A stretch of 64,000 bases of DNA from Acidimicrobiia bacterium (GTDB lineage Bacteria > Actinomycetota > Acidimicrobiia > Spongiisociales > ZC4RG35). The notes under the pieces are model-generated. The model did no database searches, was not told the DNA's origin, and saw only the letters and a program-made list of their open reading frames with translations. The stretch covers positions 2,048,699 to 2,112,698 of the forward strand of contig OZ244213.1 of the NCBI GenBank assembly GCA_965216905.1. Direction: 5' to 3'. The translations under genes were made by a program, and so were the position numbers. Of the stretch, positions 43,944 through 50,898 are shown piece by piece (position 1 is the stretch's first letter; every line of letters begins with the position of its first letter).

Positions 43944-46223
43944 TCACACGTCGGCCAGGATGGACTCGAGCAGTCGGGCCGCGCCGTCCTTGTCGAGCGG
44001 GTCGTTCAGGTTTCCGCATTTGGGACTCTGAACGCAGCTCGGACAACCGTCCCGGCAGTCGCAGCCAACGATCGCCTCCCAGGTGGCGCGTAGGTGATCG
44101 ACCCCGGCCCGGTAGGCGATCGGTGAGACTCCGGCGCCCCCCGGATATGCCTCGTAGATGTAGATCGTCGCCTGGCCCGTCGAAGCGTGCCAGGCGGTCG
44201 ACAGCCCTCCGATGTCCCACCGATCGCAGATCGCCATCAGCGGCATCATCCCGATTCCGGCGTGCTCGGCCGCGTGCAGTGCTCCCGGGAGGGCTCGGTG
44301 GTCGACGGTGGAGTCGTCGATGAGATCCGAGGGGAGCGTGAACCAGATGCCCTCGGTCTCGAATGTCGTGGTGGGCAGATCGAGTTCGATCGTGTCGAGA
44401 ACCTCTCGGGAGCCGAGCCGGCGCCGCTGGTAGCCGACCACGGTCGTTTCGACCCGTACCCGGCCGTGATGATGTCCGGCGCGACCGATGAACCCGCCCT
44501 CGATGAGATCGACGACGGTCAGTTGTTTGTCGACCTTGGGCTGGGTGTAGTAGTCGATCGTCGCCGGCTCGACCCGCACTTCCCGCCTGCCGATGTCGAG
44601 TTCTGTCACGAGGTAGGTCTCCCCCTGATGAAGGTAGATGGCACCCGGGTGCCCGTCCCGGAAGGCACGAGCCTCGTCCAGGGTTCCGACCGCGCCATCT
44701 GGTCCGACGATCGGATAGGTCGGGCCTCCGCTGGACCGGATGTCGACCATCGGCGCCGGCCGGTTCCGGCGCGACCAGTACAACCCTCCCTCCTTCAGCC
44801 GCAGGTGACCCTGCTGGACCAGCCGGTTGGCGGCCTCCTCGATCGTCTCGCCGAGCAGGGCGCGGTCCTCCAGTCGAAGCGGCAGTTCGTAGGCGGCGCA
44901 GGCCGCGTGTGCTTCCGCTACCAGCGGGTTCGCCGGGTTGATCACGGCCGCTTCGGGCGGGCGGGAGAACAGCTCGTCGGGATGAGATACGAAGTACTGA
45001 TCGAGGGCGTCCTCTCCGGCCACGAGGGTGACGAGCGAGGCCTCCCGTCGACGTCCGGCCCGTCCGGCTTGTTGTCGGAAGGAACTGATCGTGCCGGGGA
45101 AAGTGGTGATGACGGCTGCGTCGAGGCTCCCGACGTCGATGCCGAGCTCCAAGGCGTTGGTGGCGACCACACCGCCCAACTCGCCGCTGAAGAGGCGCGA
45201 CTCGATCCGACGACGTTGCTCGGGCAGGTACCCCGCTCGGTAGGGGGCGACGCGATCTGCTCCCAGGCGGTCGGACGCCCATCGGTACATCAATTCGGTG
45301 GCCCGGCGGCTCCGGGTGAACGCGATGGTGTTCAGATCGGCGGCGACGAGATCGGTCAACCGTTCGGTCGCATCGGTGAGCGATGACCGTCGCCGATGCT
45401 GGAACTCGTCGACGACCGGGGGGTTCCACACCGCCAACCACTGTTCGCCTCGCGGTGAGCCATCGTCGTGAACCACGGACACCGGTGCGCCACACAGTGA
45501 AGATGCCAGCTGTTCAGGGTTCCCGATCGTCGCCGAGCCGAAGACGAAGGTGGGGTCGGCTCCGTAGTGGGATGCGAGCCGTCGCAATCGGCGGAGGATC
45601 ATTGCCACGTGCGTACCGAAGATGCCGCGCAGTGTGTGCATTTCGTCGACGACCACCATCTCGAGCCGGTGGAGGAAGTCGGCCCATTGGCCGTGGCTGG
45701 GGAGGATGCCGACATGCAGCATGTCCGGATTGGTCAGCACGACGTTCGCCGTGCGGCGGATGCGGGCTCGATCGGGTGTCGGCGTGTCGCCGTCGTAGGT
45801 GGCGGCCTTGACGTCGGGGATCCCCAGGTCCGTGAAGCTCCGGAGTTGGTCTCGGGCGAGCGCTTTGGTCGGGTACAGCAGCAGCGCGCCGGCCTTGTCG
45901 CCGGCGAGGCACCGCTCCACGATCGGTGCCTGATAGCACAGTGTCTTGCCGGCCGATGTTCCGGCCACGACCACGGTGTTCCGGCCTTCGCGCACGGAGC
46001 GGATGCCGGCGACCTGGTGCCGATACAGCGACTCGATGCCGCGTTCGCGCAACCGGGCGGCCAACAACGGATGGAGGGGAGGCTCGAGTGCCGCATACCG
46101 GGGATCGCGAGCGGGGGTGTGTTCGACGTGCATGAGCCCGGCATCGCCCGAGGCGCCGTCCTGATGGTGTTCCCAGGCGGACAGGACCCTCGCGATCAAC
46201 TCCTCGGTGGAGTCGCTCGGCAT
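43944..46223 (-). CDS. DUF1998-containing DEAD/DEAH-box helicase (SftH/MrfA/Hrq1 family)
   Basis: GTSAGKT, DEMH, SAT, ALELGID, QQAGRAGR, LHAAEH, C-terminal CDCRDGCPSCVQSPKC. Confidence 0.94.
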   Translation of the reverse strand: MPSDSTEELIARVLSAWEHHQDGASGDAGLMHVEHTPARDPRYAALEPPLHPLLAARLRERGIESLYRHQVAGIRSVREGRNTVVVAGTSAGKTLCYQAPIVERCLAGDKAGALLLYPTKALARDQLRSFTDLGIPDVKAATYDGDTPTPDRARIRRTANVVLTNPDMLHVGILPSHGQWADFLHRLEMVVVDEMHTLRGIFGTHVAMILRRLRRLASHYGADPTFVFGSATIGNPEQLASSLCGAPVSVVHDDGSPRGEQWLAVWNPPVVDEFQHRRRSSLTDATERLTDLVAADLNTIAFTRSRRATELMYRWASDRLGADRVAPYRAGYLPEQRRRIESRLFSGELGGVVATNALELGIDVGSLDAAVITTFPGTISSFRQQAGRAGRRREASLVTLVAGEDALDQYFVSHPDELFSRPPEAAVINPANPLVAEAHAACAAYELPLRLEDRALLGETIEEAANRLVQQGHLRLKEGGLYWSRRNRPAPMVDIRSSGGPTYPIVGPDGAVGTLDEARAFRDGHPGAIYLHQGETYLVTELDIGRREVRVEPATIDYYTQPKVDKQLTVVDLIEGGFIGRAGHHHGRVRVETTVVGYQRRRLGSREVLDTIELDLPTTTFETEGIWFTLPSDLIDDSTVDHRALPGALHAAEHAGIGMMPLMAICDRWDIGGLSTAWHASTGQATIYIYEAYPGGAGVSPIAYRAGVDHLRATWEAIVGCDCRDGCPSCVQSPKCGNLNDPLDKDGAARLLESILADV

Positions 46224-46242: not shown

Positions 46243-47154
46243 TCAGGTCGGCGGGCGGAGGGTCTCGGCGTCGAGGTCGCACAGCCCCGACGAGGAGGGG
46301 TTGATCTGAATCCCGCAGCCCGGCGCCAACCCATCGATGGCGTCCCGACCGCTCATGGATGGCCCTGCCCGGTCGTGCCGGACATGGTCGGGGTGCGAGA
46401 ACACGAACAACCGGTTGGCGAGGAGCGGCCCGGGGAGGATCGTGCTCCGCTCCAGGACGTCGACCACGTCGGCGTGCGTTGCCCACCCGGTCGCCGCCCG
46501 CTGGCATACGTCGTCCAGCGGGTCGGTGGGCTCGGGAAAACCCTTCGCCGCCGGTGTGGGGCGGTATCGGTCGTTGAACACGAATCCACCCTCGACGATC
46601 GAGCCCTGCTCATCGACGGGGTATGCCCCGATGATGCCCTCCGGTGGCACGGCGCCCGCCGGGTCGAAACCCGGGTCGATGGCATACAGATGCGCTCCGG
46701 GCATCGCGGTGGCCTGCTTCCGCATCTCCTCGGTGATGTGTGGTGGTCGTCTTCGTGCCGATCGCAGCAGCCGTCGTGCGGCGCTCGCTTGCGCGTCATA
46801 GGTCGTCACCGACTCGGGATCGGTGGGTGCCAATGTGGGAACGACCTGTTCCGGCAGAAAACCGTCCAGCACGTACACCCGGAGGCCGTCGCCCATGTCG
46901 CGCGCCATCCCGCTCGGCCAGCGGTCGGGTCGCGCGCCCTCGACGGCCACCAGCCATCCGAGCTCCTCCAATCGGCGGCGCACCTGTGTCAGCGCTCCAA
47001 AGGCGTCGGAACCGGAGCCGGTGATCGCCCCGCCGGGCGCGTCGACCTCGATGTCGTATGAATCGCCACCATCGTCGGTCCGGCCGTGCCGGGCCGTGGT
47101 CTCCAGATGAGTACGGTCCTCGATTCGAACCAGGGTGATGGGGATCTGGGTCAT
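46243..47154 (-). CDS. Putative immunity / T7SS-associated protein (multi-domain, SseB-like C-terminus)
   Basis: ATGA overlap with toxin stop; DAFGAL...GARPDRWPSGMARDMG; YAIDPGFDP.G.VPPE.IIGA..VD...N..YRP. Confidence 0.7.
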   Translation of the reverse strand: MTQIPITLVRIEDRTHLETTARHGRTDDGGDSYDIEVDAPGGAITGSGSDAFGALTQVRRRLEELGWLVAVEGARPDRWPSGMARDMGDGLRVYVLDGFLPEQVVPTLAPTDPESVTTYDAQASAARRLLRSARRRPPHITEEMRKQATAMPGAHLYAIDPGFDPAGAVPPEGIIGAYPVDEQGSIVEGGFVFNDRYRPTPAAKGFPEPTDPLDDVCQRAATGWATHADVVDVLERSTILPGPLLANRLFVFSHPDHVRHDRAGPSMSGRDAIDGLAPGCGIQINPSSSGLCDLDAETLRPPT

Positions 47155-48584
47155 GGTGAGTATCTCGGGTTGGGGATGAGGGGACCGAGCGACCCGTCTT
47201 CCAAGACCTCCTGGGCTCCCCGGATTCTCTCGGATCGGATCCCGCCCGGGAATGCCACTTCGGCCTCCGTCGCGAAGCGGTGGGGCCCCAGGGTGTCGTT
47301 GACGTCGATACCGCCGGGCGCGTCGATTTGGTAACGATAGCGAGACCCCCAATCGGCGTACAGGTCCTGGCGTCGACTGGTTCCCACGAACGCCGAGCGG
47401 GTGTTGTTCTCGACGTAGTCGGCCAGGTCGAGGTGATCCTGGTTCCAGGGGCGGAAGCCGGAGTCGAAGACCTCCTGGGGTGGCCGGTTGTCGGCTCGCC
47501 ACAGCGGGTCGCGGTCGACCCGCCAGGACGGTTCGGGTCGAATCAGGTCGATGTCGACCGGGTCGGTGGCGACGTCGTCGACCAACCGGCGGATGTCGGT
47601 GAGGTCGGAGAGGCGGTCGCCGGTGAAGGCGCCGTCCCCGAGGTCATCGATACGGTTGGTGGTGCGGGCGAGATCGGTGAGCGTGTCGGCCGTGTCGGCC
47701 CCGCGGCGGGTGGCGGTGGCGGCGGTTCCACCTCCGGCGGTGGCCAGGGCGATGGCGAGGTCGGGGACGAGCTGACCGAGGGCGCGGGCGGGATTGTCGA
47801 GCCACATGTCCCAGTTGGTGGCCGCTTTGGCGAACTCGACGGGGTGGGTGATGCCGTACACGATCCCCTGGCCGAGGGCGGTGACGTCCTCTGCCCACCC
47901 GTCGGGGTCGATGAGCATTCGGACGGGGGAGATGTCCCAGGCGAACTCGACCATTCCGGCCGTGGAGTCCCAGATCCCGGCGCCGAATTGGGTGGCGTGG
48001 TGCCACGCCTTGGACCAGAACCCGGGTTCGTCGGGAGCGACCTGACCGGCGGCTTGGAGGGTGCGGGCGGCTCGGTGGGCGGCGTCGTCGACCGACGCTC
48101 GTGCCCGCTCGGCCAGTCGTTGCGCCTCGGCGCGTTCCCACGACCCGGGATCGGTCGACGACGGTCGGGACGGAATGGTGACGGAGGCCGGATCCTCCGC
48201 GGCTTCGGCCCGGGTCTGCGCCAGCCGATAACGCGTCCAGTCGGCCTCCCACCGGCCGGTCTGCAGGTCGCCTTGCCGCCACAGCTCGATGGCTCGCACG
48301 GCGTCGTGGCGGGCGGCTCCGAGCACTTCTCGATAGTTCGCCACCGCCGACGCCGCTTCCCCGAATGCGCCTGCCGCGGCACCGAGCTTGGCAGGCACCT
48401 CGCCGACCGCTCCCCGAAAGCCGTCGGCCGCCTCGCCCACCCAGTCTCCGGTCTCCAGCCCTCCCAGCCGCTCCACCGCCCCCGACGCCACTCTCGCACA
48501 GCCCTGTAGCCCGGCCTCCAACCGCTCCAGAGCGGCCGGCGAACCCGGAACCACCACCTCGACCGTCGCATGACGAAGCTCCAT
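47151..48584 (-). CDS. WXG/T7SS-type polymorphic toxin with a C-terminal scabin/pierisin-like ADP-ribosyltransferase
   Basis: N-terminal W-x-G (DWVGEAADGF) helical region; toxin motifs LWRAD, FVGTS, YQIDAPGGIDVN, EAEVAFPGGI. Confidence 0.85.
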   Translation of the reverse strand: MELRHATVEVVVPGSPAALERLEAGLQGCARVASGAVERLGGLETGDWVGEAADGFRGAVGEVPAKLGAAAGAFGEAASAVANYREVLGAARHDAVRAIELWRQGDLQTGRWEADWTRYRLAQTRAEAAEDPASVTIPSRPSSTDPGSWERAEAQRLAERARASVDDAAHRAARTLQAAGQVAPDEPGFWSKAWHHATQFGAGIWDSTAGMVEFAWDISPVRMLIDPDGWAEDVTALGQGIVYGITHPVEFAKAATNWDMWLDNPARALGQLVPDLAIALATAGGGTAATATRRGADTADTLTDLARTTNRIDDLGDGAFTGDRLSDLTDIRRLVDDVATDPVDIDLIRPEPSWRVDRDPLWRADNRPPQEVFDSGFRPWNQDHLDLADYVENNTRSAFVGTSRRQDLYADWGSRYRYQIDAPGGIDVNDTLGPHRFATEAEVAFPGGIRSERIRGAQEVLEDGSLGPLIPNPRYSP

Positions 48585-48657
48585 GACGACGCACACGATA
48601 GTAGATCGTTATAAATCGTCAACAGCGCTTGACATCGGTATCGTTCGAGCGTTCAAG

Positions 48658-48846: not shown

Positions 48847-50898
48847 TCAGGTACGCCTGTCGTCGGTGGTGACCATGTCGATGTCGGTGGGGACGGTATC
48901 CGGCGTCGGGTCGGATGGCGCCGCCGGTTGGCTCGAGCCCGCCCGCTCGATGCCGGCGATGCGGTAGGCGTCGGCCTCCTCGAGCGTTTCGCTCTGCAGA
49001 AGGGCCTCGGTGAGGGCATCGAGCCGGTGGCGTTGCTGTTTGAGCTGGTCGACCGCCAGGTCGTAGCACTCGTCGATGATCCGCCGCACCTCCGTGTCGA
49101 CGAGTTCCATCGTGCTCTCTGCCACCTGCGGACGGCCGAATGCGTCGACCGACCGGTCGTCGAAGACGGTGACCGGGCCGATGTTCTCCGACATGCCCCA
49201 TCGGCCGACCATGTTTCTTGCCAAGGTGGTCGCCTGGACCATGTCGTTCTCGGCGCCGGTGGAGACCGTGCCGAATACGACCTCTTCGGCCGCTCTCCCG
49301 CCGAGCATGCCGATGATCTTTCCGCGGAGGTACTCGACGCCATAGGAGTATTTGTCAGCGTCGGGCGACTGCAGCGTCACGCCCAGCGCTCGCCCCCGAG
49401 GGATGATCGAGATCTTGCGAACCGGGTCGGCGCCTTCCTGGAGCATTCCCAGGAGGGCATGTCCCGACTCGTGGTAGGCGGTGCGCTCCTTCTCCTCCTC
49501 GCTCATCATGATGCGTCGCTCGGTCCCGAGGATGATCTTCTCCAACGCATCGGTGAAGTCGTTGACCATCACCTTGGTGTGGTTCCGGCGGGCGGCCATC
49601 AATGCGGCCTCGTTCACGAGGTTGGCGAGGTCGGCACCCACCATCCCCGGTGTCGTCGAAGCGATGGCACCGAGATCCACCTGGTCGTCGAGCGGGACGT
49701 CGCGGGTGTGGACTTCGAGGATTTGGCGGCGCCCCTGCTGGTCGGGCGGGCTCACGGGGACCTGGCGGTCGAACCGCCCCGGACGGAGCAAGGCCTGATC
49801 GAGGATCTCGGGGCGGTTGGTGGCGGCGATGACGATGACACCCTCCGAGCCGGTGAAGCCGTCCATCTCGGTGAGGATCTGGTTGAGGGTCTGTTCCCGC
49901 TCGTCGTGACCGCCGAGGCTGACACCCCCTCCGCGTGCTCGTCCGATTGCGTCCAACTCGTCGATGAAGATGATGGCGGGGGCGACCTCCTTGGCCTGCT
50001 TGAACAGGTCGCGGACCCGGCTGGCGCCGACGCCGACCACCATCTCGACGAACTCGGACGCCGACATCGAGAAGAACGGCACATCGGCCTCGCCGGCAAC
50101 CGCTCGGGCGAGCAGGGTCTTCCCGGTCCCGGGCTGTCCGGAGAGCAGGACGCCCTTGGGGATGCGGCCGCCGAGGCGGGTGTACTTCTCCGGTGACTTG
50201 AGGAAGTCCACGATCTCGACGAGTTCCTCCTCGGCGTCCTCGATGCCCGCAACGTCGTCGAAGGTGGTCCGGTGGGTGGTGACCTCGTAGCGGCGGGCCC
50301 GGCTACGGCCCAGGCCTCCGATCCCCCCCATCGCCGAGCCGGCTCGCCGATACACGGCGAAGATGATGTAGGCGAAGAGAAGCCACGGCCCGAAGTTGAA
50401 CAAGAGGAGCTGCCAGGTTGGGAGGGGTGCGTCCGGGTCTTCGGCGTTGACTTCGACGCCCAGGGAGATGAGGCGGCTCAGCAGGTCGTCGTCCGCGAAC
50501 GACGGTCGTTCCGTCTCGACCCGATCCCCCGAGATCTCCTCGTTGTTGGGATCGGTGATCGCCGTGTTGAGCCGAGCAGTGATCGTCTGGTCGGTGGAGG
50601 TAACCGACTCGACGTTCTCGGACTCGAGTTCGGCGAGGAACTCGGTGTAACTGATCCGAATCGGATCCTCTGGACTGAACAGCGCGTCGGTCACCAACAC
50701 GTTGATCACCAGCATCGCCAGCAGCAGCATCCACACCCAACGCGAACCCGGACGGTTCTGGAACAGATTCGGGCCGCTCTTCGACTCGTCCCGCCGGTCG
50801 TCCGGCATGCCCTCGACCCGCCAACCCGGGGGCGACTTCTCATCGTCCTTCCGCGGGGAGCCGCGCTGGGGCGTTCGGGGGTTGGGCCGGGAGGTCAT
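48847..50898 (-). CDS. ftsH: ATP-dependent zinc metalloprotease FtsH
   Basis: 2 TM; [35 protein letters not shown]. Confidence 0.96.

Follow-up and report, generated by a model that had tools for sequence, protein, structure and literature searches.

A type VII secretion-type polymorphic toxin with a predicted TreX-like ADP-ribosyltransferase tip and a TriX-family immunity partner

The two-gene module described here (Table 1) lies in a 64,000-nucleotide stretch of DNA (the window) from a genome, probably actinobacterial to judge by its relatives, consisting of one 3.48-Mb contig of 66.6% GC, and its sequence identifies it as a predicted type VII secretion system (T7SS)-type polymorphic toxin that would work like TreX, together with a TriX-family immunity protein; it is neither a scabin nor helicase-linked. 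In our preferred reading, to which we assign a probability of about 0.6, a T7SS-routed toxin carries a tip that modifies arginine in a protein essential to a rival, and the partner, a TriX homologue, protects the producer. The WXG-like N terminus would send the toxin through the type VII secretion ATPase encoded far away in the genome, the tip would ADP-ribosylate arginine in a protein that a neighboring bacterium cannot do without, and the first domain of the partner would plug the toxin's active site so that the producer is protected; the middle domain, M, would most probably be an accessory, toxin-derived piece helping to neutralize or stabilize the toxin. The original prediction had proposed a T7SS-type toxin-immunity module, which is borne out by the homology of the partner to TriX, by EccC and WXG100 in the genome, and by paralogues with swapped tips. 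The two open reading frames, including coordinates, lengths, shared strand, and ATGA overlap, were also as it had described. Both frames are intact, with GC3 values of 0.83 and 0.82; the module has no GC or GC3 anomaly, no direct repeat flanking the insertion was found among the 20 largest of 39 repeat families, and comparison of toxin and partner at the DNA level gave nothing past 16-base chance-size matches.

Table 1. Features of the toxin-immunity module and its flanking genes (positions in the window)
Feature	Position	Strand	Basis
Polymorphic toxin gene, 477 aa	47151..48584	(-)	ORF call + Pfam
Three-domain partner gene, 303 aa, overlapping the toxin gene at ATGA	46243..47154	(-)	ORF call + model
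T7SS-signal (WXG-like) domain, toxin residues 11-187, W48-x-G50	48024..48554	(-)	PF21725 E 4e-23
Cysteine-free scabin/TreX-like ADP-ribosyltransferase tip (predicted), toxin residues 339-477	47154..47570	(-)	scabin E 2e-28, TreX E 7e-12
TriX-family immunity domain, partner residues 1-132	46759..47154	(-)	profile vs PDB E 1.2e-24, Foldseek E 6e-7
Middle (M) domain, partner residues 136-205, NF033532 first half	46540..46749	(-)	NF033532 + profile-profile alignment
SseB-like tail (putative), partner residues 206-303	46246..46539	(-)	PF07179 in 3/47 aligned relatives
Sigma-70-like promoter match, weak, 11 bases 5' of toxin start	48595..48622	(-)	1 found, shuffles 0.3 +/- 0.5
MrfA/DUF1998-type helicase, resident flanking gene outside module	43944..46223	(-)	Pfam + relatives
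ftsH, resident flanking gene; abuts helicase in 4 relatives	48847..50892	(-)	Pfam + relatives

Secretion Machinery and Paralogous Toxins

A search of the genome for EccC and WXG100, as suggested with the original prediction, found both over cut-off, with profile scores (cut-offs in parentheses) of 676.7 (509.15) for TIGR03924 and 648.4 (346.55) for TIGR03925, representing EccCa and EccCb, and 76.8 (44.85) for TIGR03930, representing WXG100. The description of the toxin as an orphan therefore holds locally, all EccC/FtsK and WXG100 matches being outside the window, but not for the genome, which has a T7SS cluster about 1 Mb from the module, where WXG100 is joined by a fused eccC and by a gene with a YukD domain (C1:1078412-1083727). 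This compact cluster (L003:12413-17725; G000 C1:1078412-1083724) is followed by lon and dnaK, with no other components adjoining, and the tail of its YukD-domain protein resembles, by eye, a P-loop-less MinD/EccD variant. EccCa is also over cut-off in the genome carrying the closest orthologue of the toxin (G786); two other module-bearing genomes have EccC-like matches below cut-off, in one of them (G649) 2 kb from the module.

PF21725 is rare in this class, being over cut-off in 1 of 401 genomes, and three PF21725 loci occur in the genome studied here, with an ART, a nucleotidyltransferase-like, and an EndoU-like tip, respectively. One paralogue (L001:9218-11481; G000 C1:1487217-1489480) has an N terminus 58-69% identical to that of the toxin and a nucleotidyltransferase-like tip (PF01909); it has a frameshift near C1:1487820 in this assembly, and the gene behind it encodes 266 aa with an internal repeat and without a Pfam match. 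The third toxin (L002:9761-11768; G000 C1:1043760-1045767), whose EndoU-like tip is below cut-off (E 9e-4), is preceded by a small EspC/WXG-like gene and followed by one without annotation, amid many small toxin-antitoxin-looking genes. Because the genome contains EccC and WXG100 as well as two paralogues with the same N terminus and other tips, we read the toxin as a polymorphic toxin. It shares its N terminus, swapped tips, and downstream immunity gene with the PF21725 T7SS-signal polymorphic toxins of Actinomycetota, but no helper WXG gene or secretion genes accompany it at this locus. T7SS effectors often need co-encoded WXG helpers; no small WXG100-like helper was found beside the ART toxin, unlike the third paralogue.

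Domains and Catalytic Residues of the Toxin

The W-x-G N terminus proposed earlier was found as W48-V-G50 within the PF21725 domain, and residues 361-475 match the Scabin-like family PF22596 (E 4e-35). The tip is predicted to adopt the Scabin-like ART fold with R363 and E-x-E. The ART motifs LWRAD (R363), FVGTS (G401), and FATEAE (E440 and E442) are present, but the triad had been given as R-S-E and is read here as R-G-E because G401 aligns with scabin S117. Among solved structures, the tip is most similar in sequence to scabin and ScARP/SCO5461 from Streptomyces, with further matches to pierisin, TreX, and MTX (E 9e-12), and is nearer to scabin than to TreX. R77 and E160 of scabin correspond to R363 and E442, and N110 and W128 are kept as N394 and W412, whereas S117, W155, and Q158 are replaced by G401, F437, and E440, and the C176-C190 disulfide is absent, the two positions being Q458 and L469; the sole cysteine of the toxin is C29. 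The toxin is also below the cut-off of the scabin-type family NF041482 (118.7 versus 250). E-x-E occurs in 13 of 14 aligned full-length homologues, the remaining one having D-x-E.

G401 may cost activity, since the S117A substitution in scabin lowers transferase activity from 186 to 15 per min (PMC7828395, Table 1), and the closest orthologue (L028) reads S-T-S in this region. These residues bear on the alternative of a weakened or stranded module, in which the toxin is poorly active or unexported and the partner is kept as armor against foreign toxins. We regard this as rather improbable; it would fit the absence of helper genes at the toxin locus, the frameshifted paralogue, and the presence of TriX-like genes without a nearby ART match in six of nine plasmid loci carrying the domain (L042, L043, L044, L048, L050, and L051), but a glycine takes the place of the triad serine in 9 of the 39 related loci, all of them followed by a TriX-like gene, and the toxin retains R363, E440, and E442 in a module with intact frames and normal GC3.

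The TreX-TriX System and the Likely Substrate

The solved closest system, unrecognized in the original prediction, is TreX-TriX from Xenorhabdus bovienii (PDB 8S2M, 8S2N, and 9GCO; PMC11606950). Both systems have a cysteine-free scabin-like tip with an F-x-x-E-A-E loop and a downstream TriX-fold immunity protein with a PS.M.RDM helix. TreX, on the other hand, is delivered by a T6SS as an Rhs protein, whereas the present toxin has a PF21725 T7SS-signal N terminus and no Rhs domain; the triad serine of TreX is a glycine here, and the TriX-like domain is fused to M and SseB-like domains. TreX is described as an E-x-E enzyme devoid of cysteines that has FtsZ as its substrate, requires reduced thioredoxin, and is blocked by TriX (PMC11606950). 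The toxin has the C-terminal extension, in which L469 and P471 stand where TreX contacts thioredoxin through T130 and L132, neither contact being kept by identity; a thioredoxin dependence as in TreX is possible, at slightly worse than even odds.

The specificity loop of the toxin, F437-A-T-E440-A-E442 (FATEAE), matches that of the protein-modifying TreX (FAAEAE, seen through the homologue P0016) and not that of the guanine-modifying scabin (WADQVE), so the earlier reading of E-x-E as pointing away from guanine stands. ExE is given as typical of arginine-modifying toxins (PMC11606950), and MTX from Lysinibacillus sphaericus, a pierisin homologue with ExE, modifies an arginine of EF-Tu (PMC8120803); MTX shares the pierisin-family fold with the toxin but, unlike the module, has ricin-B domains, acts on insects, and lacks a TriX. 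The target protein of the tip cannot be predicted; it is FtsZ for TreX and EF-Tu for MTX, and a Pseudomonas TreX homologue is reported to have a different target (PMC11606950).

The same toxin-immunity module might instead carry a tip acting on RNA or a guanine base, a reading that we consider unlikely but worth keeping in mind. N394, W412, and the aromatic F437 match three of the four DNA-bridge positions of scabin, and these residues, together with the greater similarity of the tip to scabin/ScARP than to TreX, count against a protein-arginine substrate. TreThr, whose closest folds are TreX and ScARP, modifies tRNA-Thr anticodons (PMC13617354), and specificity determinants are called unknown in PMC11606950. 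However, scabin Q158, which in ScARP/scabin hydrogen-bonds N2/N3 of guanine (PMC7828395), is E440 in the toxin, both characterized E-x-E relatives with a known target, TreX and MTX, modify proteins, and coupling to TriX goes with E-x-E tips. An arginine-modifying tip thus remains our preferred reading, and a natural E-x-E enzyme keeping part of the DNA-binding set of scabin would be useful for the question of protein versus nucleic acid specificity.

The First Domain of the Partner Belongs to the TriX Family

The partner had been proposed to consist of a PSGMARDMG domain, a T7SS-associated domain, and an SseB-like tail; the first two were recovered as TriX and NF033532 matches, and the tail through relatives only. 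The partner itself has no Pfam match, and its sole match among PDB sequences is TriX (E 0.056). The first domain has at least 506 homologous representatives at E values up to 0.001, and among the 150 listed most are stand-alone proteins of ~130-150 aa. A profile of 88 sequences, the query plus 87 of these 150 chosen by length, matched TriX over its full length (profile positions 6-136). The structural model of the partner (mean pLDDT 95.3) had TriX as its top four and only significant Foldseek matches, with TM-scores of 0.77-0.82 on the target and an rmsd of 2.7-2.8 A. The first domain is therefore a true member of the TriX family, that of the immunity protein solved for TreX. In the alignment, PSGMARDMG falls on positions 78-86 of the TriX chain (a chain numbering that may be offset from that of the paper), and it includes a helix at 82-87 in the predicted model; the inhibitory helix of TriX, 80-86, enters the active site (PMC11606950). 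With S81 conserved in 86 and R85 in 84 of the 88 sequences, this segment is a predicted active-site-plugging helix, in which R85 would mimic the acceptor between the two toxin glutamates. There is no Pfam model for the TriX-like family, and an ESM Atlas search with the first domain gave three unnamed clusters under 0.9.

We took 74 loci (66 metagenome, 3 viral, and 5 others), of which 72 had an ART match; removal of near-copies at 80% identity left 47, and in 39 of these the sequence continued for 700 bases or more downstream. In the first 1.1 kb behind the tip, a TriX-like gene was present for 21 of 29 E-x-E tips, for 1 of 2 others, and for none of the 8 with Q-x-E. All eight scabin-type Q-x-E loci thus lack the gene within this distance, whereas the locus described here has a fused toxin and an immunity gene. 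Without the four loci reached via the partner or the own genome, the counts are 17/25 versus 0/8 (Fisher p 0.0009), a value that overstates the association because the Q-x-E tips form only 2-3 clusters in a tree that covers 33 of the 47 tips and is weakly resolved, so that 0/8 represents few independent cases. In the phylum, 3 of 401 genomes have a TriX-like gene, in each case with an ART upstream of it and M downstream. Behind the E-x-E tips in L107, L113, and L105 stand two or three TriX-like genes in tandem.

A Toxin-like Middle Domain

Residues 155-239 of the partner pass NF033532, named "type VII secretion system-associated protein" (90.3 bits, cut-off 85), and the layout of M followed by an SseB-like part is common to both; in the partner, this layout is fused behind TriX, and its first half resembles the C-terminal half of the ART. 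The SseB-like nature of the tail is suggested through relatives only, the best of the PF07179 matches having an E value of 2.4e-9, and SseB domains have been proposed to be peptide-binding chaperones (PMC9503650). Elsewhere in the genome, the second half of NF033532 has a match in an SseB-like ORF that stands alone (L068:1381-1767; G000 C1:888k).

In HHalign, M aligns profile-to-profile with the C-terminal half of the toxin tip, the alignment running through the strand after W412, a gap over the E440/E442 loop and strand, the last helix, a strand, and the extension. The probability was 94.7 and, with deeper alignments (31 and 43 rows), 95.9 at a score of 49.0, whereas 200 column shuffles scored at most 19.0 (probability at most 6%), the reversed profile 13.5, the TriX profile 11.5, and a thioredoxin profile 10.3; with Q-x-E tips alone, the probability was 44.8. 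Both invariant residues of M line up with a near-invariant G and N of the tip. HMMER profiles of M found no ART among PDB sequences (best E 0.9 and 0.45), the first ART that Foldseek reached with the whole partner was heat-labile enterotoxin A, down at rank 20 (E 0.97), and a word-based search found no short M homologues. Taken together, the profile comparison suggests that M likely descends from the C-terminal half of the toxin, without the catalytic loop. A decayed ART tip from Streptomyces that has lost the catalytic loop (L047:5528-5917) matches the M profile (E about 1e-4) and gives a natural picture of a possible origin of M.

Of the 29 E-x-E tips, 15 are followed by M, two of these (L078 and L118) without a TriX-like gene, and in two Ralstonia megaplasmids M is an 80-aa stand-alone gene that comes behind a TriX-like one, so the name of NF033532 is too narrow. 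In these megaplasmids, both genes belong to immunity arrays (L050:5890-6512 and L051:5890-6512), with no ART match in the 12-kb stretch. M is not bound to one toxin, since it also occurs near Q-x-E tips (L100, L111, and L112) and in T7SS loci without an ART in view. We tentatively propose, as an idea with the odds clearly against it, that M is a catalytically dead offcut of the C-terminal half of the toxin, now serving as a second, widespread immunity factor against scabin/TreX-like toxins, a toxin mimic that would jam the toxin or compete for whatever its C-terminal extension has to bind. A complex prediction of M with the thioredoxin of the same genome scored 0.01 (mark 0.32), an outcome that weighs in neither direction. 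If M does protect, it would be an antidote made from the toxin's own fold, which would give a function to, and account for, the whole NF033532 family; this toxin-like domain is the part worth an experiment.

What is new here is that M resembles the C-terminal half of the toxin and recurs behind toxins of this kind, in some cases as a separate gene. The full-text literature outside subscription journals yielded no paper joining scabin, type VII secretion, and ADP-ribosyltransferase, none combining four of scabin-like, TreX, immunity, actinomycete, and WXG100, and only unrelated work in which the NF033532 name meets SseB. Fusions of this kind may already be among the 2195 homologues in Supplementary Table 5 of PMC11606950, and database names of homologues already include "putative T7SS-secreted" and "scabin-related." The present analysis extends TreX-TriX, a pair of T6SS/Rhs proteobacteria, to toxins of T7SS type in high-GC bacteria, and it gives a name to the TriX-like family.

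The Helicase Is an Ordinary Neighbor

The helicase downstream, whose ATG at 46223 lies 19 bases past the partner stop, has DEAD, Helicase_C, and MrfA Zn-binding (PF09369) domains and scores 855 against TIGR03817 (cut-off 874). The original prediction linked it to the toxin by possible self-protection through co-transcription; in this reading, the toxin would modify guanine and the MrfA helicase would repair self-inflicted adducts. The short same-strand gap without a terminator-like site and the support of mitomycin C damage repair by MrfA (PMC7797055) speak for such a link, but among the 20 of 30 relatives that have the helicase none carries toxin or partner in its 1.5-kb flanks (the upstream sequence in one locus being shorter than 100 bases), and in four ftsH lies directly beside it. 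A scabin-like domain occurs in 1 of 401 genomes of the class, the one studied here, and the helicase in 1 of 72 toxin loci, again its own, many of these loci being short. The orthologous pair in L028 (57.5 and 40.7% identity) lies among unrelated genes, with no helicase within 4-5 kb. Together with the E-x-E loop, these findings largely refute the repair reading, which we hold to be very improbable, and the helicase is an ordinary neighbor. Because none of the 20 relatives carries the module there and the orthologous pair lies elsewhere, the module must have been inserted between ftsH and the helicase. Shared transcription of toxin, partner, and helicase is plausible as a by-product, given the promoter match upstream and that no terminator-like site was found between partner and helicase.

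HAD phosphatase and tad (Flp pilus) genes lie 2.4 kb beyond the helicase end (window:36756-41503), and in several relatives, as well, the helicase has tadE-like genes on its flanks. Farther along, the window encodes a 730-aa secreted-looking protein with S-layer homology repeats plus an unassigned C-terminal part (window:34388-36580).
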